Positions 9,304-35,735 of a stretch of 64,000 nt of DNA are shown piece by piece (within the stretch, counting starts at the first letter, position 1; every line of letters starts with the position of its first letter). Made by a program: the position numbers and the translations under genes. Origin of the DNA: Takakia lepidozioides (Eukaryota; Plantae; Bryophyta); NCBI GenBank assembly GCA_030704615.1, contig CM060731.1, positions 12,772,001-12,836,000 of the forward strand, read 5' to 3'. The notes below the pieces were generated by a model. That model ran no database searches and had not been told where the DNA came from. It worked only from the letters and a program-made list of their open reading frames with translations.

Positions 9304-9891
9304 TTTGGCGACCATACTGGGGACCTGAGACATGAACAACCAGATGTGACAGGCATCTGGTGGGATCATGGTGGTTGGACCATTAAAGAATTTGAAGTGA
9401 ATCAAATTCCCTGTGGAACGAAGGAAGAAAGATTGTCCAAACAATTCTTTCAAAGGTTCTTGGAATTGCCAGACGGTTGTAAAGAAAATATTCTTAAGCG
9501 AGTGCATGATGCTGATCCAGAATGGGGTCTGGAGAAAGGAGTGATAAAGATTTATCAGGTAGCCTGTAGAGGAAGAGCACGTTGGTTACCAACATTGGTT
9601 TATGTGATAGCATTGCTATCCATTAAGCGAGTAGAGTTTGAAGGCTGGGAAGAAAGAAAGGTGAATGTTTATACTCATATGCATGAAGAGCTTGTACTGG
9701 TAAAGAATTGGATTCCAAAGGATATTTTGTGGATCAAACTCACACCAAGACAGCTTTTCAGACTTGTTTGCCATATGGTTATATGGTAACGGAGACTTCA
9801 AGTATAGCCAAGGTGTGCATTGAAGCTTGAAAGAAACCCAGGCATATACGAGAGATATTACAGAAGAGAGTTTTGGTTATTGCCACATTAA
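9196..9891 (+). CDS. Extra ORF upstream of gag, unknown function (frameshifted near its 3' end in this copy)
   Basis: The second copy (28270-28965) gives an uninterrupted 231-aa ORF. The ATG lies inside the LTR. Confidence 0.45.
9304..9323 (+). promoter_or_regulatory. Primer binding site (tRNA-Arg-like)
   Basis: TTTGGCGACCATACTGGGGA directly after the LTR. Resembles the TGGCGAC...CTGGGGA PBS of Tat/Ogre-type elements. Confidence 0.65.
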
Positions 9892-9912
9892 AAGAAATGA
9901 AAGACATGGGAC

Positions 9913-12900: not shown

Positions 12901-15900
12901 GGGAGCAGGGCAGAGATGCGGCTGGAAAGCCTAAGTTGTTTGAGAGGTATCTGCTGTGGTGTAGTGACAGCAACACCAACTGAAGAGGAAACCAGCATTT
13001 ACCCATCACATTTCTATGAAGAAAGAGAAGGAGAAATAGAAATCCTAGAAGAACCAGCCACTGTGAGCTTACAGGATGAAGTGGTGACTGGTTGGACAAT
13101 CACAGCTGATGAGCAGGTGAGGGAAGTAAATGTGGGAACTAAAGAGGAACCGAGGATGGTGAAAGTAGGAGCTGATTTGGAGCCGGAATTCTTCGAAGAA
13201 GCTAAAAGCTTGTTCATCAAATACAGAGATGTATTTGCTTGGAGCTATGAGGATCTAAAAGGGATACCACCTGAAGTCTGTCAGCATAAGATTGAACTGG
13301 AACCAGGGTCAGTACCAATCAAGCAGGCGAGGTATAGAATGAATCCCAACTACGCACAGAAGGTTGGAGAAGAGATAAAGAAGTTGGCTGAGGCTAAGTT
13401 TATATACCCAATAGAGTATACAACTTGGTTGTCACCCATTGTTATAGTTCCCAAGAAGAATGGCAAACTAAGAGTATGTGTGAACTATAAGAAGCTGAAT
13501 GCTTGTACGAAGAAAGATCCTTTCCCTTTGCCATTCACAGAAGCAGTATTAGACACTGTGGCAGGCCATGAGATGTACTCATTCATGGATGGCTTCAGTG
13601 GTTATAATCAAGTGCAAGTGGCAGAAGAAGACCAAGGGAAAACAGCTTTCATCACAGACTGGGGGGCTTATGCATACAAAGTCATGCCCTTTGGACTTTG
13701 TAATGCACCAGCGACCTTTCAGAGAGTGATAAGTGAATCTTTTCATGAGTATCTGGATGATTTCATGCAGGTATTCTTGGATGATTTCAGTGTGTACAGC
13801 TCTAAGAGTGAGCACTTGCATAAATTGGAGTTATGTTTGGCCAGATGCAGGATGAGAGGTCTGGGCCTGAATCCAGAGAAGTGTACTTTCTGTGTGAACT
13901 CAGGGGTGCTTCTGGGACACATTGTGTGTAAGAAGGGACTCCTTGTGGATCCCAGAAAGACAGAGTCCATTAAAGCCTCTCCACCACCAGTGAATGTTAA
14001 AAGTCTACGGAGATTCCTTGGGCAAACCAGTTATTACAGGAGATTTGTCAAAAGGTATGCACAAATAGCAGCACACCATTGAGCAAACTACTGAAGAAAG
14101 ATGCAGTGTTTGCCTGGACAGCTGAATGTCAACAGGCATTTGAGGAACTTACACTGTCAGTAACAACTACACCTGTGCTGATTAACCCTCACTGGCATGT
14201 AGTATTCCATGTTCACTGCGATGCATCAGGAGAAGCGTTGGGAGCGGTGTTAGCCCAGAATGTTACAGGGAATATAGATTCACCTGTGTACTATGCTAGC
14301 CGGTTGATGAACAGTGCTGAGAGGAACTATAGCACAACGGAAAGAGAAGCATTGGCAATGATCTATGCAGTGAAGAAATTCAGGCATTACCTGTTGGGCA
14401 AGAAGTTTATGTTCTATGTGGATCACCAGGCTCTGATATACCTGGTAAACAAACCTCTGATAAGCGGAAGAATAGCAAGATGGTTGATAATCTTGCACGA
14501 GTTTGAGTTCGAGGTTGTTTACAAGCCTGGGAGACTGCATCTTGTGGCGGATCATTTGTCACGATTGTCAACAGGAGAACCAGCCACAGGAATAGATGAT
14601 CAATTACCAGATGCGAGTCTCTTTGCAGTGGAGGTGCAGGGAAGTGCAGATGACTGGTTAGATTGGCAGTGGCCAATCAGATACTACCTTGCTCATGGTC
14701 AGTGCCCACCTAGTTATGGTAAGGAGCAGAGGAAGAGAATCGCTATCAAAGCTTTACCTTATACTATGGTAGGAAGCAGAATGTATAAGTTAGGACCTGA
14801 TGGAGTACTAAAACGATGCTTGTACCACCATGAAGTAAATAAAGTTTTGGCGGAAGTTCATAAAGGAGTGGCTGGAGGTCATTTTGGAGAAGAGACTACC
14901 AGTAGAAAGATACTACTCGCAGGATACTGGTGGCCTACTTTGTTCAAAGATGTACACGAGTATTGTCAGAAGTGTGATGAATGTCAGAGGCTAGGACCTT
15001 TGCAGAGATCTGGAAGGATGGCCTTGCATCCTACAATGCCTACGGAACCATTTCAGAAATGGGGACTAGACTTTGTTGGACCAATTAACCCACCATCCAA
15101 GAATACACGAAACAGGTACATAATTACAGCCACTGATTATACTACAAAGTGGGTGGAAGCTAAAGCTTTGAGGGACAACACAGCCAGTCCACAGCAAGGT
15201 TCCTGTACGAGAACATACTTACACGATTTGGCTGTCCCTTAGAATTTATCAGTGATCAAGGAAGTCACTTCATGAATGAGACCATTGAGTTGTTGACTAA
15301 AGAGTTTATGATTGTGCATAGAAAGAGTACAACATATTACCCACAGGGTAATGGGCAGGCAGAGGCTACCAACAAAATACTATGTACTATCTTGGCTAAG
15401 ATAGTCAATGCAAACAGAACGGATTGGGATACAAAGCTGCTGACAGCTTTGTGGTCATACAGGACTTCATATAAAGTCACCACTAAGTATACACCATTCC
15501 AATTAGTTTATGGTATGGAAGCCTTACTTCCAGTGGAATTCCTGTTACCTACCATGAGAACGGAGTGGGGAAAAGAATGGAATTGCAAGACTCCATCAAG
15601 GTCAGGAAACATGAATTATACCATGTGGAAGAAGTACGTGCTGATGCAGCTGATAATATGACCAGAATTCAGATGAAGCGAAAGGAACAGTTTGATGAAG
15701 GCAAGTTAAAGACTTTTAAGACGGGGGATTTGGTTCTATGGTTGCAGAAGAAAGGAAAGATTCAAGCTTCTAAGCTTAAATCACCATGGAAAGGACCTTA
15801 TGTCATACAAAAGATGTATGATAACAACACCGCCATGTTACAACCATTAACAAAGAAATGCTGGGAAGAGTCAATGCAAATAAGTTGAAGGGGTACAGTG
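9913..15900 (+). CDS. gag-pol polyprotein, broken by 1-nt indels
   Basis: Gag core [14 protein letters not shown]; three CCHC knuckles ([42 protein letters not shown]); protease VLIDG...LLLGRPWL; [24 protein letters not shown]; RNase H CDAS...TERE..DH; integrase [20 protein letters not shown]. Confidence 0.93.
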
Positions 15901-16049
15901 GTATCCATGACAAACCCTTGCAGCATGATTTGCATGTTGAACCGCAAGAGCAGTCACGGGCTGCACCAGTGTTACGAACGGAGTATGGAGCACTTGTCGC
16001 TAGGCCCAGCATATATGACCAGGGCGGGCAAAACAAACGTGACACACCT

Positions 16050-16320
16050 ATCACAGCCCATCAAGCAAAGCACAGCCTATCACAGCCCATCACGACGACA
16101 CAACCTATCACAGCCCATCACGACGTGACACAGCCTATCACAGCCCATCACAACGTACACACAGCCTATCACACAGCCCAGCACGGCGCAACACAGCCTA
16201 TCACAACCTACCACACAAGCGTGTCACAGCCAGCCTATCACAGCTTACCACAGTGCATCACAGCCTATCACACGTAACACAGTATGACACAGCCCTGTCA
16301 CAGCTCAACACAGCCTACTA
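16050..16320 (+). repeat. Internal CACAGCC(C/T)ATCA tandem array after pol
   Basis: Directly visible repeats with the same motif class as the LTR array. Confidence 0.8.
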
Positions 16321-16419
16321 AAGTTACACGATCCATAGAATCAGTGACAAGTGGACGCATAATAACTTCAGGAAAATGGCTGACGGAAGAGAAAACGGAA
16401 ATTACTTTAAAATAGACAC

Positions 16420-19400
16420 GTGGAGGTCAGGGCGCGACACACAGCCGAGAAGGAAGTGCAAGAACAGGTGTCAAAAAGAAAGAGGACAAGAACGGCCGTC
16501 AAAAGGATGAAAGGCGGCCCATTAATGAATACGGAAAAAGGGAAACGGAACGAACGGCAAGTACAGAAAAGCGGAATTCTTGTCACATGTGTGATCCTAG
16601 TGGACTATCCAACAGGAAAGTCCACTAAAGAAATAAAATCTAAAATCCAGTCACAGCGGATACAGCCAATAGAAAACCAGAGAAAGGATCAAGAAAATGG
16701 AGGGAAATTGAGCGCAAGAGGCGGCGTCGTTCTGAGTAACGGGCGTCTCGACGGGACAGACCATCAATGCTATAGCTTGGAAACTATGGAGGAACTAACA
16801 GACTATACGCTCGCAATATTACTTACGCAGTGGCATAGACACGAAAGGACAGAGCGGAGCTTTTCTCTTGAGCGATGCTTGCAAGCCCCGCAGGCTTACA
16901 AGAAATTACCCATAGCTTTCTGCGGCAACCATACGTTTATGCTTTGTGCACTACAGGCATTCCTGCAGTTGTTACAGCCAAAACAGTTCTGTGAGTCTAA
17001 AATGAAGAGAGTGAGAGGAATGGAGGAAATCAGGGTGAAGAGCACCACAATTCTGCAGAAACAAACGATTGCTACCCCACAGGCGATACAGATACTGGAG
17101 GAGCTGAGATTGCAAGGATTGCAAAGCCTAGATTGGACATTACACTACACCATAGACAGTACATGTTACAATTTTTGCAGAACTTTGAGCCAAGGACAGG
17201 AACAACAACGGTGAAGGGAGTTGAATTGATGATTACTCCCCTATACCTCCAGCAATTGTTTCGATTGCCAGCAGGTCAGGTGCATGTGGAGGAACACAGG
17301 GCAAGACTGCAAATAGGGGACTTATTCCAAGAAGGGAGTTTCTTTAAAACTCAGGGTTATGCTTGTACCAAGGCTGTGTACCCAGGGCTAAAAGAGGTAG
17401 GCCAGGTATTGAACGTTCTGATTGCCATGAAACAGAACCAACAGTATTTGAGCAGATCCTTCACGGAGGAAATACTCAAAGGCCTGAAGGGACAAGAGGT
17501 ACAATGGGCGGACATAATGTACAACGCACTGGTAGAGGAGATGAAAAGATTACAAGTACTACCGCAAAGTCTCCTATCATAGTGTCTGGCCCAATCATTG
17601 CTCAAATAATCCTTGATTCTGGCATACTTGATGCGCAAGAAAAAAAAGAAAGGAAATGGGAGTGTTTGAGCCAGAAACAACTGCAATGGAAGAGCAAGGC
17701 TCTTCACACAGTGAGGGTGGACTAGCAGGGCAACCCGAGACTAAGAGGCAGAGACGGGGAAAGACTGTAGTGGCGGATCCACTGGCTTCACGGATTCCGC
17801 ATGATAATGTTTCCCAAGCTCATGGCCAGGAAGGGGCACAGCAGCACAGAGAAATGCTATTACTGGAAGCAGGACCTTCAGAGAGGGAGGAGGAAGTTAC
17901 TTCTGTATCACAACCATCACAGCCAGCTGATCGACTTGTCACAAGGTCACAAGTTATCCATGCAGCTCAACCAGAAATAATTGATTTGGAAAGAAGGGTT
18001 AGATATTCCAACTACAGAACAGATAGTGGCAGAAATGGAGAAGGGGGACCTTCTCTATGAATATTCTGGTCTGGTCAAGGAGACAGAGATCCCAGAGGTG
18101 CAACAGTTGCCCAGGGAAATCCTGAGGTGCATATAATACACACACCTGTGTCGGAGGTACCACAGGCGGAAGGTCATGACACTGTAGCACCGGTGATAGA
18201 TGAAGTAGTTCAGGAAGAAAATCCGGTGGGACAATGGCCTGAATGGTTCGTGAGACATCACACTGTTGAAGATCAGGAGGAACAGCAGCAACCTCACCAT
18301 GATGACCCTCAACAGGCAATGCTGATGAGTTCCATAGGCAGGACACTTAATTTGTTGGGGACTTATGTCAAATCCCATGTTCCAATTACCCAATTGACAG
18401 CCTTGAGAGAGGAACTCAGGAAGGAGTTTGAGGCTCGACTAGCCACTGAGTGTGCAAACAAGGTCGATGAAGAGGTCACTCTCAAGATGCAGCAGGACTT
18501 GGGAAATACAGAATGGCTTTGCAATTGGCCAGGAACAATTGATTGAGGCAGGCCTCGCGCAAGACCAGTTGCACGAAGCACATAAGCAACAGCTATACCA
18601 AATGCAGGTGCAGCATGAAAGCAAGTTGCAAGAAGTGAATGCACTACATACGGAGTTGCAGACAGTGCATGACAGGATGGCGATACAATGTGCTACATTC
18701 ACAACTATGCTTGACCAATCTACAAAAGAAATAAACAGTCAAGCGGAAAAATGTACGAAGGCAGAAGAAGAGAATGTTGAGCAAATGAAGCTCATTGTCG
18801 ATATGAAGAATACAATCTGTCGCAATGAAGATACTTTCAAGCAATACAGGCAGATTGAAGCTGATCAAGAGAAGCACATCGTGGAGTTGCAACAAACCAT
18901 CATGGCCAATAAAATGAAATCGCGGTCAATAACAAGGCTTGGAAGGAAGCCAATAATCTACTTGCTGCTTATGCGCAATTGGTTGAACCTCAGGCGAAGC
19001 GCATGGAGGCTTTAAACAAAGCAGTTGGAATTGTACAAGCTAAGAGAGGAGCAAACTCTCAGGGGAACCACAAGCAACTTGGTGGATAACAGCCTTATGC
19101 AGGTCTGGTTAGCACAAGGGCCAGTAGAGGGCAAAGCACCACGAAAGCTCACCCAAAGCGAGATGAATGAGCTCAGGCTGCAGGTGCAGAACATTGCCAC
19201 AACTACTATAGACAATGTCTATAGTAGGATAGCAGAGTTACAAGAGGATGTAGACGGACTGCAGACTCAAGTGGAAGACCTCACTTCAAACATCGACAAA
19301 AGAGTCTATATCCCTCAGGAACAGCTAATGGCTTCTTATTTACAAGCCAGAACTTTGGCTTTTCAGTCTTCACAGGAGGTGCAGGAGATGCCAATGATAC

Positions 19401-20300
19401 AAGAGCCAGTACCACCACCACCACAACAAGTCACTGTACCAGTAGCTGAACCTGTGGTTACTACAACCACACACCACAGCCACCACAGCCGGAGGTATGG
19501 GGCAATGCCGCTTTTAACCCACCTAAAACTCCAGCTGCAAGGGAGTACAGTAGGGCTATGATTATGCCCTTCAACCAAATTCCCATCATGTTGGATTTGG
19601 CTTGGAAAGAATTTAGTCCTCCGCAGTCATTCGCACATTACTACCAAATCATGCGTATTTGGCTGCCAGTGGCAACTAGGACTAAAGTTCTTCCGAACAA
19701 TCGACATATTGAGATCATCACTTTGCACAATACTGGCACGAGGCAGGTACCATGTTGAGGGAATTGATTGCTTTCCAGGTTGTACATGGACTCATTTAAC
19801 CAAAGACCCAAAGGAGGAGGTAGCAAGTATTGTCAGGGGGATGCGGGGGGTTATTATACGCTGCTTGTTTCTGGTACTGTTACCACATGAGCAACAAAAG
19901 ATGCAGAGGACACGGCTTTCTGAGTTATTCCAGTGGAGGTCATGGGGGTTATTCCTTGGTGCCACCTCATATGTACCCATATGACCCAAAGTTGTGATGG
20001 CAAAAGGATCTCAATATTCGTTCTGGTTTCAAGCGGGCATGGTGGAACCATTTGTCAACCAAAGAAAATTCGGCCATTAGATGACCATTTTCTATTCAGG
20101 GACATGTGGCATGGAAATACTTTGGCACGCTGCTACCAGTAATTGGTACCCCCACTCACCTGGAAGACAAGGAGCTCAGTGTCTACACCAATTTTGCTTG
20201 TTCAGTGGTTACACCAAGTGTAAAAAATACAAAACTTCCAGACATGGTTAGGAAAGCATTGTATGCCCCAGATTGATTCCACAAAAAGTTCGAAAAATTA
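16420..20300 (+). CDS. Additional 3' ORF(s) of the retrotransposon (Athila env-like position), frameshifted
   Basis: About 4 kb of overlapping sense ORFs: QFLQNF...TVKGVELMITPLYLQQLFRLP...VQWADIMYNAL (plant transposon-protein-like), an acidic/Gln linker, and a long coiled-coil-like region (18400-19300). Confidence 0.55.
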
Positions 20301-20615
20301 AAAACACTTGAGAGGCGATGAGGATTCTGATACAACTGTTTCTTCACCGAATTCTTTTGACATGGGAGAAGACTATGCAGTTCAGATGGCAGAGAAGAAG
20401 CGAAGGGGGTCTCCTATGCCAGAAAGGTTACCTCGATATCAGCCTCCAAAGGGCCTCACTTATCCAGGTTAGTGATCAACCATCTCCGTCCACCACAAAA
20501 GACAGACCTCGGGCTCGTACACACAGCCGCCACGAAACTCTCAACGTCAAAAAAGGTGCTCACTCACAAAGGTTTGCTAGTCGAAATCAGTAAACCGTGA
20601 GGACACGGCTTTTTT

Positions 20616-20627
20616 AGGGGGAAGGGG
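20616..20627 (+). promoter_or_regulatory. Polypurine tract
   Basis: AGGGGGAAGGGG, 3 nt before the 3' LTR. Confidence 0.85.
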
Positions 20628-20630
20628 TAA

Positions 20631-21719
20631 TGTTAGAGGACTGTCGGGGACTTAGACACTTATACAGATCTGTAGGGTACCCTTAATTTTTGCCCAGACT
20701 GAGACAAAACAGGAGCTTAGGGGTGACAACAGCGCACTGTAGAGGGGGGTTACACAGCCCGTCACAGCCATCACAGCCATCACAAGCAACACAGCCCGTC
20801 ATAGTCGTCACAGCAAACACAGTCGTCACAGCCGTCACAGCCATCACAGCCATCACAAGCAACACAGCCGTCACAGCCGTCACAGCCAACACAGTCGTCA
20901 CAGACGTCATAGCCCGGCACAGCCAGTCACAGCCGACACAGCCGACAAAGCCAACACAGCCATCACCAGTAGTCACGCAGACACAGCCGACACAACCAGT
21001 CCACAGCCCGCACATGCCAAAACACAGTCGCATAGCCAGTCACAGCCCGTCACAGTTTCACACAGCCAGTCACAGCTTGACACAGCTGTCACGATCATAG
21101 GGAACGAAGAATAGGACAGGGAACGACTGTGGGGAACAACACCTGCGAAGGGAACATGTTAGTTCACAGACGACGGTTAGTGAGGGAAACGGTTAGAACC
21201 ACGGATAGGAAGATAAAGGAAAGAAACGGGAAATGGAGGGGGATCATTCGGAGGAGGACTTCTTGGTCATGGAGGAGAGGGGATCGGGCAGAGATGAAGA
21301 ACGGAAGTGAAGATAGAGAGAGATGAGTGAGTAGATGCTTGATATATGCAAGGCTGTAATGATATTGTAGAGCAGATTAGAGACACAATGGCTTCGGCTG
21401 ATGATACCTGATAAATCATAATCGGATACTTTTACGATACAATCACACTGTGTAGAGAGATCTGAGTGAAGCTGTGAAATGAATGGATGAGTTGAGGGAA
21501 TCCAATAGATTGATAAAGCAAACTGATACTTAATTATCAATGGTAAGATAGCTAACATGAATACCAAAAGGGAAACAAATAGGAAACACCCCCATGATAC
21601 CATAGCTGTAGGTCATGACTGATTGTTCTGCGCGGGCTGGTACTTAGAGATTTCCAACTCTTCTATCTGGAGTTTCCGATTCGAATAGCGAAGGGATGGG
21701 TGAGTAAAAAGCGGCGGCA
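20631..21719 (+). repeat. 3' LTR
   Basis: Direct repeat of the 5' LTR. Ends ...GGCA and is followed by TSD GGGTG. Confidence 0.92.
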
Positions 21720-22989
21720 GGGTGAAACTGGCGAAAGCTAGGCTTGGAATACAGCCAAAGACAGCCCCGGGGGACCAAGGGTTCAGCCACAAGGCGTGGT
21801 GTTACAGGAGCAGAGGAGCAGGAGCTACACAAGTTTGTGGAGTCAGACAGCGTTGCAGTCGGACACGCTCTGCACAAGGCAACCACGAGCGGGGGTTCAT
21901 TAGCGAGGACAAGTTTGTTTTGTTTGAAGGAGATGCAGTCATTCGCAATGAGGACACCCGCAACCGTCTCAAAGCTTTCAAGTTGAGAGACTATCAAGAC
22001 CCCTACCTTTGTTTTCTTTAGTGTTCAGTGAGCGGGAGAGCGGGAGATAGCAGAGTGTTGCTTGTCTCTATCTGGCAGAAAGAGGAGGAGGTTGGTTAGA
22101 GCAATCTTACTGTAGCTTGGGACAAGGTTAGTGCAGGTTTAGGACATAGATATACCTCCTACACCTTACCATCAAGCAGAGCGAGGCACTTTGAGAGAAG
22201 TCTGGAAGTTGATAGCATAGATCAGGATTAGATTAGATCTTGCTTGGGCGGGCTTCTATTCTTCCCCTCCATCTCTGTACTATTTTCATTACCTGGTACT
22301 CGTAGTTGCCAAAGCCTCTCTTGGTGGAGGCCAGTCAGTCCGGGGTTTTGGGCTGGATATTCTGCGAGGGATCAGCGTTGCTGAGGGATTTGGTTGTGTA
22401 GGGTGTTGATGTTTTGATTTCTTGTGTTTGGATCCCCCCCAACACTTGCATGCTTGACTGTGCGCCATGTTGGTTTTGTGTGGGCGCTTGCTTTCATAGG
22501 GATTAGGCCGGATTTGATCACCGATCAATCCTAGAGTATGTTGTCGGTGGTGAGGCTGGAGTGATGACCAGCAAGACCACCACTGTTTCTTCTATGGTGA
22601 GGCTGGGATTGATGACCAGCCAACCCATAGGAGTTCTTGCGGTGGATGTAGGTGCAGGTGCCCTTAGCCACTGGGATATGACCCTTAATCCGCAACAGGT
22701 GCTCACCCGTGTCACTATTAGAATTAGTACTAGAGCCTTTAGTGTCACGGGGGGAGTGTAGGTGTTGCGAGTGTCATCATGGGAGTTACCCAAGGGTTTT
22801 GAGGGGAGTACGGCTACAGGCAAGCAGCAGTAGAGTAGAGTGGAGTGGGTTCACAAGACGAGGTGTTCGGTTCAGACCACCTTCACCGCCACCCTCAACT
22901 ACTATAGAGTCAGACACAGACTCGGAGGCTTCATCAACAGGTGTGCACTTTCATTCGCCATTGTTGTGCGGACGACATGGAGGAGATGT

Positions 22990-24200
22990 ATGGAGCTACC
23001 AAGGGGGCCTCGTAGGTACTCTGGAGCTGTGGGCACAATCGAGAGTTGGATGACTTTATCCAGGAGTTCGACAGCTGGTGTGATTTGCAGCAGATGCGCG
23101 CAATCCACAGCTATTCACCCCATTCATGGCGTGGAAGGGACTGTTCCAGCATTTGGAAGGCCCGCCTATGGACGATTACCACGAGTTCAGGCGAGGACAT
23201 GAAGCAGAAGATGAGAGATGAGGAGTGGAAGATATATTGGTCACCTGACTACGTCTCCATTACTCGAGGCACGACGCGACCAGTCAGTAGCTGCATTCAG
23301 TACCAATAGCTCCTACTGCCAGCACTAGTAGTGGAGCAAGTAGTGCTGCTGTACTTCTGCAGGTGGTTACCAGTTCAAAAGGTGCTACTACTCCTCCTGC
23401 CACGACTACAACACATGTGCCTTAGATTCAACCCGGTGGTGGAGTTCTTCCAGGAGTTGCGGAGGAACTACCAAGGGTGTACGGACAGAGAAGCTGTTGA
23501 AGTTTGCAAAAGACTTCCAGCGCAAAACCAGTGAGAGCCTGCGAGAGAGGCGTACACTCGTATGAGGCGCTTGATAAGTGTGACCCAAGGGGTTACTGAA
23601 GCTCAGGCAATCCAGTTTTAGTATGGAATTCTGGACAAGGAGCTCAAGAGAAGGGTGCGGAGATGCAACCCTGTTACAAGCAGCCCAACCCACATTAGCA
23701 GATGTGTTTCTGCTGGCTGAGCGGATTGAGCTCAACATGGTGGAGGAGCGAGTTGTTACAATTGGATTTGGCAAGGACATGCCTGCACGGGGCACAGCTG
23801 TCAAGCCCACAGGCACAAGGGACTGCCCAACAGCGTGGTCAGGGGGGCAAGGTTGCCCAGCCAAGTTCCATGGAGCTTACAGGGACCTCAGGTGTGCAGA
23901 GGCCCATGGCATCTTTTGCAGGCCAACAGCAACCAGGGGTGATATGTTGGACATGTGGAGGACCCCATGTCAAGAGAGATTGCCCAGAGAGTGGCAAAAG
24001 GCCGGCACAAGCACAGAGTGCACAGTTGCAATGTGGGCATTGTGGCAAGTATGGGCATGGAGATGCCCAGTGTTATGAACTTGCATCCTAAGTTGCGCCC
24101 AGGCCAGTTCCAAGGGAACAATGGTGGCCGGGGGCGAGGTGGACCAGCCCAAAGAGGACGAGGTGGTCGGGCACGAGGTGCAGGCCAAGGGCAAGTCCAC
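22990..24200 (+). pseudogene. gag of the DNMT-carrying element
   Basis: Stitched frames ...QRKTSESLRE.YTRMRRLISVTQGVTEAQAIQF...TLADVFLLAERIE; two CCHC zinc knuckles; RGG-rich tail. Confidence 0.75.
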
Positions 24201-25020
24201 ATGGCCAAGGACGCGGAGGTCAGGGTGTTGACCAAGGCATGGCCAATCGGCTTCAACAGCTAGAGCAGAGGCTCGCTGCCATGGCTATAGCTCAGGCGGT
24301 ACCGGCTCCCAGGAGGGATGGTCCACCTCGCTCCTGAGGGAGGAGGTATGGGAGGCATGGGATTCATGTGCGGAGCAGCACTACCACTAGAGCAGGTGGA
24401 GTCTGCTGCAGCCGTGACTCGAGGAGCAGCACGAGTCCCTGAGCCAACGAGGTGCAGAGGTGGAATTGGATCCACAACGTGGGGAGGCAAGCCGTCAGGC
24501 AAGGCTGCCTCAGTCATTCACCTTGGCGGAGACAGTGTCAACGCCATCCATGGCACCTAGTTCTCGCCCGACTGTACCGAGGCGGAGGTTACTATGCCAC
24601 TGGGAGGAGAGCTACACGCAGCACTGACACCTGCTACCAAGGCTAGTGCAGCCGTGTGTGTTGTTGGGGGCAGCCACCTCTGTGTATCAAGCCCCACTAT
24701 TCTCGGCAACCATGATTGCGATGCCGGGAGTGAGACCAGCTGCAGTGTTCAGACTAGCAGCAACACTCTGTGAGAGTGGGGAGGTCACTTCATCTTTGCG
24801 GAGCTAGTGGAAGGTGTGTAGTGGCAGAGGGATCCTCGGATTTGAGGGTCAAGACTGCCACGGCAGCGCCCTGGCAAGCTGCAGCTGCCAGGTTGACGGA
24901 GCTGCCAGCTAGGCAACCTTTGAGCGCGCCATGGTGACACCTGGAGTTGTCTTGTTAGACAACCAGGGAGGCATTTTCACTTTGAGTGGACCGGCAGACA
25001 GAAAGTAGTACCGGCCACTA

Positions 25021-25325
25021 CGGGTCTTGTTGGACTAGGGAGCTCAGCCACTGATGTTGGGCAGAGCTGCTATTGCAGGTTTTGGGCCTCATGGAGGCGG
25101 ATATGGAGCCTTGCCCTTTCCAGATACAGACATCTCTGGGAGGATCAGAGCAGGCTCGGGGCATGACACGGCATCAGTTGGTCATTAGACTGCAGAGCCG
25201 GATCATCCTATCGATGGCCTCAGTAATGCGAGCCAAGGCCATTGTGACAGACGCAATCTTTTACGATGTCCTCGTTGGTGGGGCAGTGTTATACCCCATG
25301 GGCTTCACCCTGGACTTTTGGAGGA
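25021..25325 (+). pseudogene. Retroviral-type aspartic protease domain
   Basis: RVLLD*GAQPLMLG (stop at the D-S/T-G position, 25036) and C-terminal YDVLVGGAVLYPMGFTLDF. Confidence 0.75.
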
Positions 25326-25755
25326 GTCAGCATCCTACAGGCCTGGATGGCAGAGGTCAGGCGATGGTCCGCCGTTGCACAGCTCCCTGTGACATTCATT
25401 GGGGTATAGCGGCTGCCCAGCGGGGCAAGATTGCCAACATACTAGCCGCCTTTACAGCTGCAGTTAGTTGGCCTGGAGAGTTGCTGGAAGGCAATGCCCA
25501 TGCATAGGATGTGCCACCTCCAGCAGAGCAGGATGACATGCATGGTATGCGGAGTTGCCTGCCATGGTTGCTCACACTCCATGTGGGGTTACGAGCAAGG
25601 ATTTGCAGCAGGTTGCTGACGACGGGTACAACAAGCCTGGGTAGAGGCTTTTGGTCCGTCAGGAGGAGAGGAGGAGAGTGCGGGGTATTGCACCAGGACC
25701 ACCTCAGTTGTCGCCATTGGACACCACACCTCTTGTGTGGCAGCGGCCGGATGAA

Positions 25756-26715
25756 GGCATATGCCTTCTGGACTTGTTTGGCGGGATCAGCACTAGTAGA
25801 TGGCTGCAGTGCTGCAGGGCAGGTGTACGAGTTCGACGTTACCTGTATGTGGAGATGGGATGAGACTGCACGACGCGTCTCACTGCGCCATTTTGCTCAG
25901 ATGGTGCACAGCAGGACCCTGAGGTGTTGCCGTTGGTTGTCTGCAATTCGGGATATCAGCAGGCTTGCCAGCAGACATTGCGTTGCCTGGGGGCGCAGGA
26001 TTTGAGCGGGTTGCTCCATTGATCTGGTAGTGCAGGTTGGCCCTGCCAAGGGCATTCATCAGCCGGGCATCATGGCAATGGATTGCGAGACTCAAGGACG
26101 GGTCTGTTTTGGGAGATGGTGCGGAGTTTTGCGCCACTTGAAGCTTCATCAGGCTGTATCTCCGGCATACATCTTGTAGAATGTGCCACTGATGGGTGAT
26201 TCTTGGGCCAGGGTGATGGCCAGTGTGCATCAAGTCCGGTCGTGGCTTGGGTCAGCAGTGTTGCTGGGTGCAAGCTGCAGTGGGGTCATGGGCTCATCGT
26301 CCACGGCTTTGGTGGACTAACTTGATGCCACCCGCACTGCTCAAGCGTGCATTTGATGGGGTGCAGCGCCCAGCACACCTCACCGTGGATGGCATTTTGG
26401 ACACAGGGAGCCAGTCTCAACGTGTGAGACATAATGACCGTTCGCCATTGGCAGTGGTCAACAGGATGGGTCACCACGAGCAGCATTACCTACACTGCTC
26501 AGCTTCCCAGGGATCCCATGCTTTTCGGGATGGTGGACCTGGCCTCCTGTGGGGATGCTCAGTTGCAGCAGTTAGTGGAGGCCTAATGCGCGACGAGCGA
26601 GGAGCGGGCTATGGGGTTTTCCACTGGGACCACGGCGGTGCCTTCTCTTTCTGAGGCATCACGTCGTCAGGTGTTGGGGCAAGCAATGATCTCAATTGCT
26701 GACCTGGATTATCAG
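25756..26715 (+). pseudogene. C5 cytosine DNA methyltransferase domain, DNMT3-like, within retrotransposon pol
   Basis: Ordered motifs: I LDLFGGI (25768); II RRYLYVE; III PADI; IV DLVV.GWPCQGHSSAG (26035); V DSRTGLFWE; VI YIL*NV (26168); VIII AHRPRLWWTNL (26292); IX ERAMGFSTGTT (26602); X RRQVLGQAM (26662). Confidence 0.88.
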
Positions 26716-27275
26716 CTTGGCTATGGCTGAGCAACGTAGAGTGCGGAGCGCACTTCCCTGGACGGTCTCTCTGCCTACCGAGACGGTACAGGCAGCGAGT
26801 GGGGGCGAGCCGGTGAGGGACCACGGGGTGTAGACATCCATGGCACACGTGGGAGGTGCTCGAGGTTCAGAGGGAGTTGGCAGCCAAAGCAGTTTGTGAT
26901 GGATGAGGTTGGGGATTCTTCTCGGGATGAGGAGGTTATCAATGATGAGATGATGGGGCAGGATGAGGCCTTGTCATTGACTGAGCAAGGAAGGAAGGAG
27001 TACTGCTCAAAGAGGTTGCAGCATAGCAACCAAGGGACGCGTCCTCCTCTACCTCTAAGCCCACTGGACTTAAGGTTGCAGTTACGGAGGACAATTGGGA
27101 GCCTGACATGGACTGAACCATTGTCACCGGAGGAGCGAGGAGGAGAGAGACGACGATACGGCGGTTCCTGAGGGCTTACAGGAATTGCTTTGCTTCAGTT
27201 TGAAGGACTTGGGAGCACTGAAGGGTCAAGAGATCCGTATTGAGTGGCCACTGACACGCCAATCTTTGGAGACCC

Positions 27276-29515
27276 TGTTAGAGGACTGTCGGGGACTTAG
27301 ACACTTATACGGGATCTGTAGGGTACCCTTAATTTTTTGCACAGACTGAGACCAACAGGAGCCTTAGGGGTGACAGCAGGCACTGTAGAGGGGGGTTACA
27401 CAGCCGACACAGCCAACACAGCCCGTCACAGCCGACACAGCAAACACAGCCGTCACAGCCGACACAGCCAACACAGCTCGTCACAGCGACACAGCCAACA
27501 CAGCCCGTCCACAGTCGTCACAGCCAACACAGCCAACACAGCCCGTCACAGTCGTCACAGCAGACACAACCGACACAGCCAACACAGCCCGTCACAGCCG
27601 ACGCAGCCGACACAGCCAACACAACCCGTCACAGTCGTCACAGCAGACACAGCCAAACACAGCCAGTCACAGCCCGTCACAGTTTCACACAGCCAGTCAC
27701 AGCTTGACACAGCTGTCACGATCATAGGGAACGAAGAGAAGGACAGGGAACGACTGTAGGGAACAACACCTGCGAAGGGAACATGTTAGTTCACAGACGA
27801 CGGTTAGTGAGGGAAACGGTTAGAACCGCGGATAGGAAGATAAAGGGAGAAACGGGGAATTGAGAGGGAGGATTCGGAAGGGGACTTCTGGGGGAGAGGA
27901 TTATGATTCGGAGGAGGACTTCTTAGTCAGGTTTGAGCGGAGATCGGAAGCAAAGATGGAGAGCACGGTGAAGGAGAAAGAAGATTAGTAGATGCTTGTT
28001 ATATGCAAAGCTGTAGTGATATTGTAGAGCAGATTAGAGACACAATGGCTTCGACCTGATACCTGATAAATCATAATCTGATACTTATACGATACAATCA
28101 CACTGTGTAGAGAGATCTGAGTGAAGCTGTGGATTGAATGGATGAGTTGATGGAAACCGATAGATTGATGAAGCAAACTGATACTTAATTATCAATGGTA
28201 AGGTAGCTAAGATGAATGCGGAAAGGGAAACAAATAGGAAACACCCCCATGATACACTAGCTGTAGGTCATGACTGATTGTTCTGCGCGGGCTGAGTACT
28301 TAGAGATTTCCAACTCTTCTATCTTGGAGTTTCCGCCTCGGATAGCGAAGGGATGGGTGAGTAAAAGCCGCGCGACATTTGGCGACCATACTGGGGACCT
28401 GGGACATGAACAACCAGATGTGACAGGCATCTGGTGGGATCATGGTAGTTGGACCATTAAAGAATTTGAAGTGAATCAAATTCCCTGTGGAACGAAGGAA
28501 GAAAGATTGTCCAAACAATTCTTTCAAAGGTTCTTGGAATTGCCAGACGGTTGTAAAGAAAATATTCTTAAACGAGTGCATGATGTTGATCCAGAATGGG
28601 GTCTGAAGAAAGGAGTGATAAAGATTTATCAGGTAGCCTGTAGAGGAAGAGCACGTTGGTTACCAACATTGGTTTATGTGATAGCATTGCTATCCATTAA
28701 ACGAGTAGAGTTTGAAGGCTGGGAAGAAAGAAAGGTGAATGTTTATACTCATATGCATGAAGAGCTTGTACTGGTAAAGAATTGGATTCCAAAGGATATT
28801 TTGTGGATCAAACTCACACCAAGAATAGCTTTCCAGACTTGTTTGCCATATGGTTATATGGTAACGGAGACTTCAAGTATAGCCAAGGGTGCATTGAAGC
28901 TTGAAAGAAACCCAGGCATATACGAGAGATATTACAGAAGAGAGTTTTGGTTATTGCCACATTAAAAGAAATGAAAGACATGAGACATGAGTGATGAAAG
29001 AGAAGCTAGACGACAGAGATATTCAGCAAAAAGAGAAAGCTATCTGAAAGCTAATTATCCATATCTTTGGGAGAGAGGAATAGACATAGGGGAATCATCT
29101 GGACCTCTCACACCATTAAGATCAAAGAGTGCATCACCTATACCGGAAGAACTAGAGTTGGATGCCACTCCTTCTGTTTCTTTGCAAGAAAGATTAAGGG
29201 AATTGGTACAGGAAGAAGATCAATCACGAGGTGAAAGATCTGAGGTACATCCTTGGATAAAAGACTTGACAGAAATCTTTGATAAGAGTTGGCATGGAAC
29301 ACCAAAAGCAGGAACTCCAGTTTCTGAAGCAGAAGGTGAAGAAGGAGAAGAGGATGTGGCAGAGCCAACGGAGAGTTCAGACTCTCCAACACCATTACAG
29401 TTGAGTTACATGAGTGAAGAAGAAACCCAAGGGCAGAACTTGGAGGATGAAAACAGAGAGAAGAAATTGGAAGAGGAAGAATATGAAGAAGTAGACCCAA
29501 CAGCTGAGGTTGAGA
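27276..29515 (+). mobile_element. Truncated second copy of the first Ty3 family (5' LTR 27276-28377, PBS, extra ORF 28270-28965, gag start at 28987)
   Basis: Near-identical to 7987-10441 and breaks off after GCTGAGGTTGAGA. Confidence 0.92.
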
Positions 29516-29563: not shown

Positions 29564-29918
29564 TGTCAAGTTAAATAAACACAGTGTGAAACTAACTAGA
29601 ATAAATCTAGTTATTTGTATTTAACACTTAAAAATAGTTCAAATGTTAAGTCAAGTGTCAAGCTAAACTTGACACCTGAACCATCTTATCTTCACGAGCT
29701 CGTCAGTCGTGCGGCTCATCTCTCTCGAGTTGAGCCTGCACGACCGAGCTCCCTCGCTGCTTAGCATCTGAGAGTACTTATGGAGGGAGAGTAGGATGTT
29801 GTGGGGTGGAGTCCCCGTAGCTTGGGGTGCCCCTGGCTCGACTCTTATTTTAACGAGTGGTTGTATTGTATTTCGTGTTTTTGTGTCAAGAGACAGTGTG
29901 AGTTTAGTTTTCATTTCA
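29564..29918 (+). repeat. TG..CA repeat copy 4, without the extension
   Basis: TGTCAAGTTAAATAAAC...TTTTCATTTCA, near-identical to copies 1 and 2. Confidence 0.85.
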
Positions 29919-30119: not shown

Positions 30120-31050
30120 TGCAAGCTCCTGGATGCTAAGATTATTCAGCCTCTTGCAGGAGACAAGCTTGACCTTGCTGACTTCAAAACTGCCATCGAA
30201 AAATCAAAGGGTGTTTGTCACAAGCTAAGTAAATAGTTGAGAGTCATGATGCGAAGATTGCAGCACACCATAACATCTCTAACAATAATATCACCATACC
30301 TTAATAGCAAGATACTGAAGGATCTCGAGCTTAGTGTTTCAATGAGTGCAACCCAAAACCAATCGCACAAGGGCATACAATGCTCCGTCTGATGTATAGT
30401 GGAGTTTACTGAGGATGTTGATAGTTGATACCTTGCAATGCCTGGGGGCAATGCTTTGTACCACATGTTTTTGAATGTTTCCCTCCCTGCTGATGCCATA
30501 CCGGTGATGGAGTTATTAGCACATACACTGCCATTCCCGATTTTGATGTAAGCAAAACCGAAGTGCTGGAGGTTGACAAGCCCACTTCAGAATGAGTAAC
30601 CATAGCAGCCATATGAAATTTCACTTCTGTTCTGAACTGCTCCTGCAGACACAACATTGCATACCTGTAGTTCTACCCCTGGGGAAAGTGACATACCATT
30701 GAAGTGCCTGACAACTACTACTGCTCAGTATGCAACTCTCATAAGCAAGACCCACCTGCACGTTTGGAAACTGCAGTAACCATCTCCACAAACTACACCT
30801 CAAACAAGTTGAACTCAATGAAATCAAGGTCTTTCAGAGTGAACTTGTATGATTTGAGGCCCACATCGAACAGACAATCATGAACCTGAATGGTGTTTTC
30901 AGTGTCGATCACTAGTCAATCTTGTCAGTTGAAAAAATGTCCAAGAAAGGCACTGTCAAACTCGTGCAGGTGACAATTCACTTTAAAGAAGCACAAACTC
31001 TTTGAAGGTCAAGGTACAATTTCCCTGGTGAAGACCTTACCCCACTCAGG
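30120..31050 (-). pseudogene. Possible decayed NB-ARC/LRR (NLR-like) fragment
   Basis: Short motifs in plausible order: PFLDIFS, ENTIQVHDCLFDVG (MHD-like), LRIMTLNYLLSL, VKLVSCKRLNNLSI. Many stops. Confidence 0.25.
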
Positions 31051-31547
31051 AAACTCCAGTACCTGGTTTAGTGGTTGTTGGCATCAATCTACTTTCTAAT
31101 CACATCCTTTGATCTCTCTCTCTCTCTCTGTCTCTCTCCTCTCTAGAGTATTAGAGCTGGAATGAAGACTTGCGTATGGGTATAATGTGGCAGCTCAAAC
31201 CCTATGACAGGGATTGCCCTCAGCTTTGAGATGGTCTATAACCCCTGAGAGGATTCTCACAGCAGCTTTGAAAGGGTTGATACCCCTCAAGGTCTTCATA
31301 GCCCGCGGATACAGATTTGGGTGTAAAGTCTGAGTGGCCATACAACCTGCACCAGTTTGGCCACTACCAAACTGGGGGGAGGTTGCATGGCCACTAAGCT
31401 ATTGCAACCACCTTCTGTCAAAACAAGTAACATCTCTCTCTGTACCCAGCTGCTGATGGCAAGCAAGGTCTAAGGAGTAAACTCTCTCACAGCAACACAT
31501 TCATTCACTTCATAGTCACACCATTGAGCTGCCCTGTCCACTGCTGC

Positions 31548-34500
31548 TCAAATTGTCACAGTACGAAATCCATTGACATCAGTGGAATGTTCGGTTGTAT
31601 CTTGTTCTTCCTCCCCTTCTCCTTCTTCGTCTTCTTCTTGTATCACATAAAACTGGCTACTATGCGAAAATGGCTGGTCATTTAGTGGCCTTCTCTCATC
31701 GTCCTTCACTTGGAGTAGCTCGTTTGAATCTTCTGTACCTTCAATTTCGCCCAAGGCCTCATAATGTTGTGGTGTCGTATAAATCTTACTTATCATAGAG
31801 TAGAGAGGAAGTGACAGAAGAAGAAGGAAAGCCAGATGGCAGTTGAATTGTAGTGTAGCCAGTGCCCTGCCTCTCATGAGATGCATGCCTGCAAGCCATA
31901 TTACAGCAATTCTGTACAGGTTAGTGACATTTGAACTCAACTCAGGGGTCTGGCCCTTCAGCAGCAAGTTTTTCTCTGACTGGAGTTTTAGAATTGAAGC
32001 CCATCATAAGACTGTTAGGGACTGGGACCTACAAAAACTCCCTGTCTCTTACACGAGACCGGAATGTCCCATGTCTGTTTAAAAAGGGCCTTAGGTATCC
32101 AGTCCTGAAACCTCAATCTTTTGTGACTGGAGTGCCGGGTAGTATGCGTGAATGATAGGGCAACTGAAGTGATCCCCATTCATTAGAGACAGGGAGTCAT
32201 TGTCAACCTGTATAAGAAAGGTGACACAGAAGAGCCAGGGAACTATCATGGTATCATGCTTCTTAGCACAGTTAGCAGGCTATTATGTAGGATAATAAGC
32301 CTAAGCACCCATCTCAAGGTTGATCTGGAGTCTGGAGGTGGATTTCATGAAGGCCAGGCTGGCTTCGGAGGCATAGGGGCTGCACTGACAATATCTTCAC
32401 TCTAAGCCAGGGAAGGAAAAAAAGAAGGAAAGCCCACTTTTGTCTTCTTCCTGGATGTCAAAATGGCTTATGACACTGGCGTGACAGGCTGTGGCTCCGC
32501 TTTGGTCTTCTGGGGTCAGGGGAAAGATGTGGAGGGTGGTCCACAACCTGTATGTGAACACCAAAAGCGGTGTTACGGTCAACAATCAGAAGTCTACTTC
32601 TTTGATATTGATCAAGGTAAAGGTTGTACCCTCTCCCACTGCTCTTCAATGTTTTCATTAATCAGCTTCTTGAAGGTGGAAAGCGAGGGGTTTGGGCTGA
32701 AGGTGGGTGTTGCCACTATACCAGCTCTTAAGTTTGAGGATGACTTCACGGACCTAGGGGATACCCCATCCAATCTCCAGGAGCTGATTATTTGTGCAGA
32801 GAGGTTCTTTGACCTGTGGAGGCTAGAAGTAAATGTTAGTACATGGGCAGAGGTGGCATTCAACGACCATGCGGAGGGAGGAGGGGATCTCAAATGGAAA
32901 TCGGGTGACGAAGAGATCCCTCTACTCCCTTCCTATACATATGTTGGTGTTGATGTAACCTCCAACTGTAGCTGGGATGCACATATACAGAAGCGATTCA
33001 TGGTCGGATGGTGGGGTCAGTTGAATCGCACTGCTAATTCCAGATACTCTAAAGTAATTGACGCGATTTTTTGGAAGCAAGACTGTCCTGTTAAACAGGG
33101 TAAGTCTTGGCGGACAAGGGTAAAAGATATTTTCAAGTATCGGTCCAGAAGAATTGACCCTACTGGATGAAGCTGACATGGAGGGGCTTGTGCCCAAAGT
33201 CATGCCCAAAGACTGTCTGATAAAATGAGGTTAGGCATAAAACCTCCCTGAACTTGTTTCTGTCTGTGACATGGTCAAGGGCCTTAAGGATGATTTGAAG
33301 GGCCTACCTATTCTCGGCAATAGACTGAAGTTTAAACTCAGGGCGGTGGGAACCTTCCTTTGAACTAACCAGGTGCAGAGAGGAAAGGACATTGTAATTG
33401 CCCCAGGTGCAGGCAATCTGAAGATTTTCTGATACCTTGTCTGGGGTATTCACACCAGAGAGTGACCCTCTTCAGGAACATCAAGGGCATGGTTTCTCTG
33501 TTCACCAACTTTCAAAATGTCGAGGCTGAGCCTAAAGCCCTGGGCTCTATCTTTTGGGCTCCTCACACACACAGCAGATTGATGCTTGTGTGAAGGGCTT
33601 ACTAGAGGATATCTGGAAAGCCCGAACTAACTGTCAAGATTAAAGAGAGAGAGACTTTGTGTGTGACTTACCTTGGTCGAATATTTCAGGTGGGATAAAG
33701 TCATTTTTTCCTATGTATGTCCTGAAATTGACAAGTAGACACTTGCTGGAAAATTCATTCCCTGGCCTAGGGCCTTGTGGGATTTATTGCCCATCTCCTG
33801 GTTTAAATTTAGGGTTTCAGAACCCCAACCCTGCAATTTAGTGCTCATTTACAAAGGTTGTGTAAGCTGCTACCTGAAACTATGACAGTGTCGGGCACAC
33901 AGCTCACCAAGCTCTGCCTTCAAGAGTTTTTCAACAAGGCTGCGGCTAGCAAGATTTAAGCGCAACCTAGCCTTCATTATGCTGGTCGAGCTTCCTATGC
34001 AGTTATAGGGAAGCTTTCGCTCAGTTGTTGACAGAAACAGGAAGTTAAACTTAGCCCTTACCATGCTTTGCAAGTACTTCTTGTTACGTGAACAGATGCA
34101 TGCTGTGTCGCAGACTGGTCTGCCTCAAACTTTCAAGGTTCTGTGTAATATCACACCTTACTATTACTCTTGCAATCTTTCACTTGCTTAGAAATGCATG
34201 TTGGACAGCGATAGCAAGCGTGAAGACCTGCTACTCACCTCGCGCATCCTCACTAACACGCAGTCTGTTGGATGTGGTGGTTTTTGGGACGGGCGCAGGT
34301 GAGGGTCCTTCACTTTTCATGGATTTCTAAGCTGTATGTGTAAGTTTTGCTACAGAGGACACTGGATAGACAATGGAAATCACCTATCGCATGAGGCAGC
34401 CACTGCCTAAGAAGAATGGTACAGCGCTTGACGACAGCCTCAGGTTTCCTTGAGGGAAGTATTTTACGGAAGTAATCTGCCCTTGACATCTGTTACCAGA

Positions 34501-35735
34501 GGGTTCTGAAGACCTGTCTTGACTTGGATCAATCTCAGCCTACAGCCAGCTGAGTGGTTTCATTTTGAATGCTGTGTGTTTGCTTTGGTTTAAGACATGG
34601 AAGTACACCCCTTTTGGCCCATGGTGGAAGACTTGGTTTTGTCTCAGTTTTGAGACGTGTGATTTTCAGGGAAGTATTCGTTTTGTCGCTACTTCGATGA
34701 AACCGAATTATAACATGCTAAAAAGCACGAATTTTTTGGCTCTCTGTGACAGTAGAGTCAATACGAATTTCACTATGATGTTGTCACTATGAAGAAAGAT
34801 GGGAGGTTTTGAAGGGTTTCTAACAAACCCCACCACCCCCCATCACCCAGAAGTGTGAAACAAAGCAGGAGCAAGCCTGTGGTTTAGGAGAAGGGTGATG
34901 GTGCCTTGCAATGCAAGGCTGTTTTGTCTTGGTTTTAAAAAAAAAAACTTTCTGATCTGGTCAAGTCTTGACAGATCCTTTCTTGTCGTGACAAGACAAG
35001 CCCTATCTCTCTCTCACACACACACACACCCACACACATCCTAACGTCATGCTTGGAGGCGAAATTACCTTCACAAGTGACAGTGTAGTCGCCCTCCCCT
35101 GTCTCCTTCAAAGAGCACCCTTGCGCTATCCATCGTTGACTAAACAGCGAGATGGCGATTTGCAATAACCACGTCCCTTGCAGAATCAGTGCCATGCTGC
35201 GCACGAGGGGGGGTAAGATTGCATGCGGGTATACGACCTCCACAGCTGTAGAACCGAGGCATACTCCGATCGGCACGAGAAGGAGATGATGATATTGGCT
35301 TTCTAGCCCCGCCTGACCTCTCTGTAGATAAAATAACAGAAATTCCTGACCGAATGCAAACATGGAAAGCAGTTTGGTCACCTCATGAGGCAACGGCAGC
35401 AATTTCGTGTTTTCCGCGATTAATGTCACCACAGAATAGAGCAGGAAGATGGACGCCACCCCCATTCTTTCAAGATTGACGGCGGCCGAAACCCTTTTCG
35501 TTGAGTCCTCCTCATGAGCAGAAAAGACAGCATCGAAAATTACGTGAGAAAGCGACAGAATCACTACCAGGTACAGATCGAGGTTATGGAGCCTACTCTT
35601 AGCATGGCGGACGCCAGGTTGAAGGTATAAAGTCCTGTGACCTTTCAACCTGAATTTTCTAACAGTCTTAAAGGCCTGTAAAAGCCCCACGACAAGAAAC
35701 CCCGCCCCTGCACCTGCCTGCACCAGCCAACCCAT
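31548..35735 (-). CDS. TMEM45/DUF716-family multipass membrane protein; exons 35735-35069 and 31888-31548
   Basis: Hydrophobic helices, GLESQYHHLL and LILQGTWLLQIA. A phase-1 GT..AG join gives TVTCE-G-MHLMRGRALATLQFNCHLA. Confidence 0.8.
32180..33635 (+). mobile_element. Degenerate non-LTR (LINE) retrotransposon RT fragment in the TMEM45-like intron, antisense to the gene
   Basis: IVNLYKKGD.EEPGNYHGIMLL, EGQAGF, CTDNIF, FLDVKMAYD, GCTLSPLLFNVFIN, KFEDD (YADD position), YTYVGV. Confidence 0.85.

Follow-up and report, generated by a model that had tools for sequence, protein, structure and literature searches.

The 64,000-nucleotide stretch of Takakia lepidozioides DNA analysed here (Bryophyta; GenBank assembly GCA_030704615.1, contig CM060731.1, positions 12,772,001 to 12,836,000), which we call the window and whose own numbering we use throughout, contains a decayed Ty3/Gypsy retrotransposon at 22977-27275 on the + strand. 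Its coding regions run from gag through a zinc knuckle, a protease (PR) and a DNMT3-like C5 cytosine methyltransferase (DNMT) to the start of a reverse transcriptase (RT). We think it quite probable that this is a dead copy of a high-copy Ty3/Gypsy family whose first open reading frame (ORF1) encodes a Gag-protease-DNMT3-like protein, and that the methyltransferase would be packaged at about the level of Gag and would likely methylate newly made cDNA.

A sequence-only reading of the window had proposed such an enzyme between the protease and RT of a Ty3 element in an apparent land plant. Metagenome relatives of the element, for which linkage was scored in the best 80 of 160 confirmed loci, bear this out: of the loci with enough flanking sequence, 51 of 58 have PR upstream of DNMT, and 55 of 61 have RT downstream.

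Identity of the methyltransferase domain

The motifs named in the sequence-only reading are all present on the + strand between 25768 and 26679, in the expected order and spread across three frames. They comprise motif I, LDLFGGI (F at 25777), GWPCQG (PC at 26041-26046), the *NV of motif VI (stop at 26177), AHRPRLWWTN (R at 26298 and 26304), ERAMGF (26602-26619) and RRQVLG (26662-26679). A Pfam search matched PF00145 to a stop-free 58-residue piece around GWPCQG (26023-26196; E 4e-5, 23.6 bits against a cut-off of 22) and gave no match for three further stop-free pieces (25645-25860, 25859-26002 and 26217-26651). A family profile built from 13 relatives, with the window sequence excluded, was run on six frames of the 64 kb; it matched four pieces within 25747-26688 (independent E-values 2e-34 to 4e-13), and these were its sole matches.

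With a 94-residue piece of the window as query, three relatives were recovered, including P0003 (58%), which has an intact 368-aa domain. When the window DNMT was projected on P0003, 281 of 320 codons mapped with 59% identity, and no intron was needed to read the domain, as had been claimed. Against solved structures, the P0003 sequence scored 48 bits with DNMT3A, 24-38 with plant DRM-type entries and 19 with HhaI. Its predicted model (pLDDT 92.7) matched DNMT3B best (Z 28.3, root-mean-square deviation (rmsd) 2.7, 279 residues aligned), followed by DNMT3A (Z 27.2, rmsd 2.5, 269 aligned), M.MpeI (Z 25.4, rmsd 3.3, 286 aligned) and MET1 (Z 15.8, rmsd 3.6, 279 aligned). This intact relative is closest to DNMT3A/B by sequence and by modelled fold, and the by-eye resemblance to DNMT3A noted earlier is upheld. 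The motif order, I to X, is not circularly permuted as in plant DRM enzymes.

State of the window copy

The features of the element are collected in Table 1.

Table 1. Parts of the DNMT element in the window and the insertion that ends it
Feature	Position	Strand	Evidence
Tentative 5' terminal repeat, putatively part of the DNMT element	21719-22035 and 7506-7986	+	Self-BLAST, 84-87%
gag, frameshifted	22977-23778	+	tblastn with P0004 gag, E 2e-33
gag zinc-knuckle region	23906-24082	+	tblastn E 6e-15; zf-CCHC E 0.17
Aspartic protease, broken	24919-25516	+	tblastn E 2e-24 and 1e-11
DNMT3-like C5 cytosine methyltransferase, motifs I-X unpermuted	25747-26737	+	Motifs, tblastn, family profile, PF00145, codon projection
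In-frame TAG then CAA CCA: end of ORF1, candidate readthrough site	27024-27032	+	Frame shared with RT start; homologous stop in related loci
RT N-terminal stub, broken, ~60 codons	~27087-27275	+	By-eye match to RT start of related loci and P0032
5' long terminal repeat (LTR) of another Ty3 family, cutting off the DNMT element	27276-28377	+	92% to 8455-10441, 84% to 20631-21709

The tentative 5' repeat is interrupted by a 13.7-kb LTR element at 7987-21718, flanked by the 5-bp duplication GGGTG, and self-BLAST finds a second copy of the repeat at 2782-3596. In run X8, which was guessed to be RNA and includes spliced host genes, one contig spans 21900-22174, from the tentative repeat into the DNA downstream. 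At the other end, the LTR at 27276 opens with TG and is followed by a sequence resembling a primer-binding site, TGGCGACC, and then by an internal remnant to ~29515. The RT stub that it leaves is too short for a tblastn match at E 1e-4, and tblastn found no RT, ribonuclease H (RH) or integrase (INT) of the DNMT element further downstream in the window.

Compared with sibling contigs, the window DNMT carries at least six small indels of 1-2 nt and one in-frame stop, at 26177 in motif VI, which is absent from nearly all sibling depth. The copy is dead and truncated at its 3' end. The 1-2 nt indels may reflect decay or assembly error; nearby host genes are identical to the contigs of run X3 (0 differences over 2982 and 2929 nt, depth 56-61), with the caveat for the origin of the indels that contigs drop rare variants.

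Organization and carriers of the family

Relatives have the domain order gag-ZF-PR-DNMT-RT-RH-INT-PHD, with RVT_1, RT_RNaseH and rve in Ty3 order, of which the window retains the RT start only, and with a PHD finger on the integrase (E 3e-8). Single-ORF gag-PR-DNMT proteins exist among them, and their DNMT is intronless. Intact copies with paired LTRs had been anticipated. All of gag, PR, DNMT, RT, RH and INT are indeed present in 15 of the 80 loci, but their ends are split repeats and not paired LTRs, as described below. In four loci (L019, L066, L076 and L077) DNMT elements are nested in or beside DNMT elements on the opposite strand.

The named hosts among 58 long matches to P0003 were Marchantia (16), Calypogeia, Sphagnum fallax, Mesostigma, Chromochloris and Haematococcus (one each). 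Closterium accounted for four of 10 clusters looked up, and Klebsormidium nitens for one of 10 proteins looked up, P0133 (GAQ93235.1), which has the CCHC-PR-DNMT order of the bryophyte family and shares 37% identity with P0003 across 316 aa. No vascular-plant carrier was named among the 58 matches and 30 looked-up clusters. Among viral contigs, 78 pattern matches yielded 30 loci, all of them weak and partial (E at least 1e-14, 27-53%), so that the search identified no close donor in viruses. Between Marchantia and Sphagnum-type copies, identity is 69-75% for DNMT and 75-83% for RT-RH, which is high for the moss-liverwort split and would be compatible with transfer among bryophytes.

Two layouts occur. 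Streptophytes and unnamed kin have PR-DNMT-RT, and the named chlorophytes have RH-DNMT-INT. The chlorophyte-type elements (Chromochloris P0051, Haematococcus P0058) share with the bryophyte family a related DNMT (~35-40%), a related RT and a C-terminal PHD finger; they differ in that DNMT follows RNase H and precedes integrase, sharing a single ORF with RT. The same arrangement, with the PHD finger, was seen in the Ty3 polyproteins P0036 and P0039 and in ~80 others. P0036 has an additional C-terminal domain with a DPWAG-like motif, which may be a second methyltransferase.

A conserved stop between DNMT and RT

An in-frame TAG or TAA separates DNMT from RT in 59 of 61 related loci (54 of 55 in the main family and five of six in a second subfamily), or in 50 of 52 clusters at 97%, and no other alignment column exceeds 33% stops. 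The window reads GCA TAG CAA CCA at 27021-27032, in the same frame as its RT start. Most ORF1 proteins of Marchantia, Calypogeia and close unnamed kin end 93-99 residues past motif X, as expected if these sequences, compared as proteins, stop at the same place. Given this conserved stop, DNMT is the tail of a Gag-PR-DNMT protein: it closes ORF1, and RT-RH-INT-PHD lies behind the stop. The earlier description of a pol-encoded methyltransferase therefore holds for the Ty3 element and the PR-DNMT-RT order, but not for the reading frame in which the enzyme sits.

The arrangement is not universal. Closterium P0200 and the unnamed proteins P0076 and P0052 are single-ORF forms without the junction stop, and for KnitGypsy-Dnmt3 of K. 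nitens the authors state that DNMT shares an ORF with RT (review file of PMC5890265), unlike the bryophyte copies. The partial gene model of P0133, on the other hand, ends just past DNMT, and the stop may therefore be shared with the bryophyte copies.

The codons after the stop were CAACCC in 52 of 55 main-family loci and CAATCA or AAATCA, in three of six loci each, in the second subfamily, whereas only five of 722 decay stops were followed by a CARYY context. The sequence UAG-CAR-YYA is described as the readthrough signal of tobacco mosaic virus (TMV; PMC2754532). The bryophyte element resembles that system, as described there, in its 3' context and in having an in-frame stop between an abundant upstream protein and the polymerase. 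It differs in that readthrough is predicted, and in that the stop lies past PR and DNMT and not past gag. The window has an exact CAR-YYA with no nearby ATG after the stop. From these sequence features we consider that RT-RH-INT-PHD is probably made by readthrough of the conserved stop.

Several observations weigh against readthrough. The CAACCC of the main family is one base off the consensus, the AAATCA of the second subfamily departs from it as well, the stop is followed by an in-frame ATG after 6 nt (main family) or 12 nt (second subfamily), and an unusually stable RNA structure downstream of the stop was not found (z -0.7 to -1.8). The ATG, together with the imperfect CARYYA in most loci, could indicate that RT-RH-INT is instead translated by reinitiation, and given that the TAG fits a 3' splice site too and is preceded by a pyrimidine-rich stretch in the main family, a spliced or sub-genomic RNA could serve as well. 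We regard this pair of routes as possible but clearly the less probable. In the window an ATG is missing at this place and the CAR-YYA is exact; the offset of the ATG varies between subfamilies, whereas A-stop-Q-(P/S) stays in frame; and a contig of the RNA-like run X8 is unspliced across the stop (26647-27267).

Terminal repeats and integration

Relatives begin with a repeat A of ~335 nt (TGTCATG...) and end with a polypurine tract followed by a repeat B of ~117 nt (...CGACA), so that the element ends are TG...CA and canonical paired LTRs are absent. The rve core and PHD finger end ~165 nt before repeat B. Two forms of the 3' end were found, B alone in nine loci and B-A-B in seven loci and in one more cut by a contig end. 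The order A-internal-B-A-B is complete in L019, L060, L062 and L064, and B-A-B is present in three more loci. No TGG tRNA primer site was seen by eye after repeat A in the relatives. These split repeats are known from relatives and not from the window copy, whose 3' end is missing.

All five independent insertions whose two ends are intact, among them both end forms, are flanked by 4-bp target duplications; this count sets aside L019 (5' end cut) and L008 (contig ends) and treats L062 and L064 as one. The relatives are not tyrosine-recombinase elements of the DIRS/Ngaro groups: they have a DDE integrase and target duplications. The B-A joint reads CA-GC-TG and resembles two joined integrase ends. 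The combination of split ends with a DDE integrase predicts an unusual route of reverse transcription or integration.

Proposed role of the methyltransferase

If RT-RH-INT-PHD is made by readthrough, as seems likely, DNMT would be packaged at about the level of Gag, and the position of the stop past DNMT would predict both the amount and the destination of the enzyme. In the mechanism we propose, full-length RNA would direct the synthesis of abundant Gag-PR-DNMT and a little readthrough Pol, and the protease would free DNMT inside the particle. We lean towards this release and packaging, to which the place of the enzyme in the polyprotein points. DNMT would then methylate the new cDNA; C5 methylation of cDNA, probably at CG, is a proposal by analogy with SymbioDIRS-Dnmt3 on which we are evenly divided. 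The PHD-bearing DDE integrase would insert the cDNA with a 4-bp duplication, a footprint that is observed in relatives, and the new copy would arrive pre-silenced or already marked like host DNA. Marchantia polymorpha is a genetic model with methylation mutants. As the family is present in at least 16 Marchantia gene models, the role of DNMT is testable in a land plant.

Two results speak against methylation of cDNA by the element's own enzyme. The element is not unusually CG-poor, with an observed/expected (o/e) ratio of 0.48 against 0.23 in a neighbouring DNMT-less Ty3 element and 0.52-0.79 in host exons; CG and CHG depletion did not discriminate, and base composition thus gave no support for self-methylation. 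KnitGypsy-Dnmt3, moreover, showed no methylation in yeast, a result that the authors call inconclusive (PMC5890265).

It was not unreasonable to consider that DNMT acts mainly on chromatin after integration, at the insertion site, on sister copies or on host genes, or that it binds nucleic acid in the particle, and not that it methylates cDNA. The PHD finger of the integrase and the lack of a CG-depletion signature agree with this, as does the finding that DNMT3 is the de novo enzyme of Physcomitrium (PMC10952607). The position of DNMT in the Gag-PR polyprotein, however, points to the particle, and Pfam scans of relatives identified no chromatin-reader domains on DNMT itself; we think an action of this kind unlikely, and continue to favour methylation of cDNA in the particle.

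As an observation apart from these, CHG o/e is 0.58-0.67 in the Sphagnum-type family (L008, L060, L062 and L064) and 1.18 in the window's element, which suggests a different host methylation pressure.

Selection on the domain

In comparisons of the window, the main family and two additional subfamilies with one another, DNMT has pN (nonsynonymous differences per site) of 0.32-0.36 and pS (synonymous) of 0.72-0.83, with synonymous sites near saturation. The window compared with the main family gives 0.32 and 0.74, and the second subfamily 0.32 and 0.83. DNMT is under purifying selection between subfamilies. In 45 relatives of 30-75% identity, G55 (binding of S-adenosylmethionine), C140 (catalytic), E183 (motif VI) and R223 (motif VIII) are invariant.

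Other figures point the opposite way. Within the main family, DNMT has a dN/dS of 0.56, against 0.33-0.41 for RT, RH, INT and gag (RT 0.37), in pairs dominated by decay, and an open DNMT frame is found in only three of the 63 loci with at least 300 DNMT codons. A domain that is a passenger, or non-catalytic, in land plants would account for the excess over RT and for the retention of R223 in only 38 of 76, motif VIII arginines being often mutated in dead copies. We nevertheless think this quite improbable, given that in comparisons among three subfamilies and the window pN stays far under a saturated pS, that 68 of 72 loci keep the catalytic C and 74 of 77 the motif VI E, and that liverworts and a moss have preserved the domain.

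Abundance and host

The copy in the window has many breaks and lies nested among other elements, as would be expected were it a single-copy host DNMT3 fragment among retroelement pieces, or algal or contaminant sequence, either of which we regard as hardly credible. In run X3 the summed depth is even over gag, PR and DNMT bins (3.7-7.3e5; not a copy number), and the DNMT-bin depth equals the gag/PR level and lies about four orders of magnitude above single-copy genes; this pattern rules out a single-copy fragment and contamination, and the same two explanations are refuted by linkage to PR and RT in dozens of loci. The window DNMT also groups with Marchantia, Calypogeia, Sphagnum and metagenome loci (98.4/1 in approximate likelihood-ratio and Bayesian tests, aLRT/aBayes; 98/100 in IQ-TREE), and land-plant genes lie 8 kb away. 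The conditions under which the sequence-only reading would have been withdrawn do not apply, and the DNMT element family is high-copy in a land-plant host.

The genes downstream of the element are TAF9, DUF716, RHD3, PRP31 and a 2OG-dioxygenase. The PRP31 protein shares 92% identity with that of Sphagnum fallax, the nearest named one; the values are 89% for two liverworts, 87% for Diphasiastrum and 67% for Mesotaenium. In a PRP31 tree the window gene lies outside the fern and seed-plant clades, among bryophytes and lycophytes, which makes a bryophyte host likely.

Run X8 has contigs over parts of the family and none over 25922-26558, and run X9 has almost none; this coverage indicates neither expression nor silence of the family.

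Phylogeny

The aLRT/aBayes supports were computed on a fixed topology; the ultrafast bootstrap (UFBoot) tree came from a search of 150 iterations, in which 14 rows of the earlier set were dropped and six added. All retroelement DNMTs lie far from the phage outgroups, on a backbone without support and with host DNMT3 not included. We consider the window's family likely to belong to the same lineage as KnitGypsy-Dnmt3, but K. nitens was not placed sister to the land-plant clade in a tree with backbone UFBoot of 12-81 and host DNMT3 not among the sequences, which counts against that view. The RT tree, with two outgroups only, recovered land-plant, Closterium and chlorophyte-type groups. A split between PR-DNMT-RT and RH-DNMT-INT forms appeared with FastTree (0.992, midpoint root) and is not claimed, as the later IQ-TREE analysis lacked it.

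A broader scenario, which we put forward as doubtful, is that one green-plant-wide PHD-integrase Ty3 lineage with split ends captured a DNMT3-like enzyme before the chlorophyte-streptophyte split and brought it onto land, and that the bryophyte readthrough stop would then have raised DNMT to Gag level, as a structural passenger of the particle pre-methylating every cDNA. Under this scenario the family, very numerous in this genome, would give mosses and liverworts a second source of de novo cytosine methylation, one owned by a transposon, and Marchantia would allow the idea to be tested.

Comparison with known systems

DNMTs are enzymes by which retrotransposons are ordinarily silenced. Retrotransposons that carry one themselves have been described in dinoflagellates and one charophyte (de Mendoza et al. 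2018, PMC5890265). KnitGypsy-Dnmt3 is reported there as a Ty3 element whose DNMT3-like domain is intronless, unpermuted and under purifying selection and whose repeats are split as in DIRS elements (legend of Fig. 4), and the bryophyte family is alike in each respect, its A-coding-B-A-B repeats being those of the relatives. The bryophyte family differs from KnitGypsy-Dnmt3 as described there in its land-plant host and an apparently far higher copy number in the window's family; for an integrase PHD finger such as that of the bryophyte family, no mention was found in the portions of PMC5890265 consulted. SymbioDIRS-Dnmt3 of Symbiodinium is, by the same account, the only retroelement DNMT3 shown to methylate CG de novo in yeast (PMC5890265). 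It too is a retroelement-borne DNMT3 with A-B-A-B repeats, but it belongs to the tyrosine-recombinase DIRS elements, unlike the bryophyte family with its DDE integrase, protease and target duplications of 4 bp.

EpiLTRs/DAM-LTRs are likewise Ty3 elements with DNA methyltransferases, but carry a DNMT4-related domain, DAM and a chromodomain; the preprint text sets them apart from streptophyte Gypsy-DNMT3 and is silent on bryophytes and Marchantia (bioRxiv 10.64898/2026.05.21.726589). Neither Marchantia nor Sphagnum is named in the text or supplements of PMC5890265 as retrieved. The kind of element is already known from K. nitens. No report of land-plant DNMT retrotransposons, of the readthrough-type stop or of the chlorophyte layout was found in the literature searches or in the open text consulted. 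Copies of the element may inflate or confuse DNMT counts in bryophyte annotations.

Neighbouring features

The 13.7-kb Ty3 element at 7987-21718 is complete, and its LTRs contain 9-nt CACAGC-type tandem repeats. It has an extra ORF region upstream of gag (9193-9789) and ~4 kb of extra ORFs past the integrase (16.4-20 kb), partly coiled-coil and of no clear Pfam family. A second, truncated copy of its family lies inside the DNMT element at 27276-29515 (92% overall, 99-100% in parts), and contig joints suggest further insertions of this family near 22484-22490 in sibling copies.

RHD3 is intron-rich in flowering plants. In the window (38517-41152, - strand) it has only one intron, of 158 nt, across 2.9 kb covered by X8 and X9 contigs, and may be a retrocopy or have lost introns. 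The DUF716 transcript (30140-35727, - strand) is apparently spliced over a 3180-nt intron, with a long 3' part to 30140, in two runs. An unclassified repeat of ~355 nt occurs in four copies, one of them inverted, at 1-356, 890-1312, 5004-5426 and 29564-29918.

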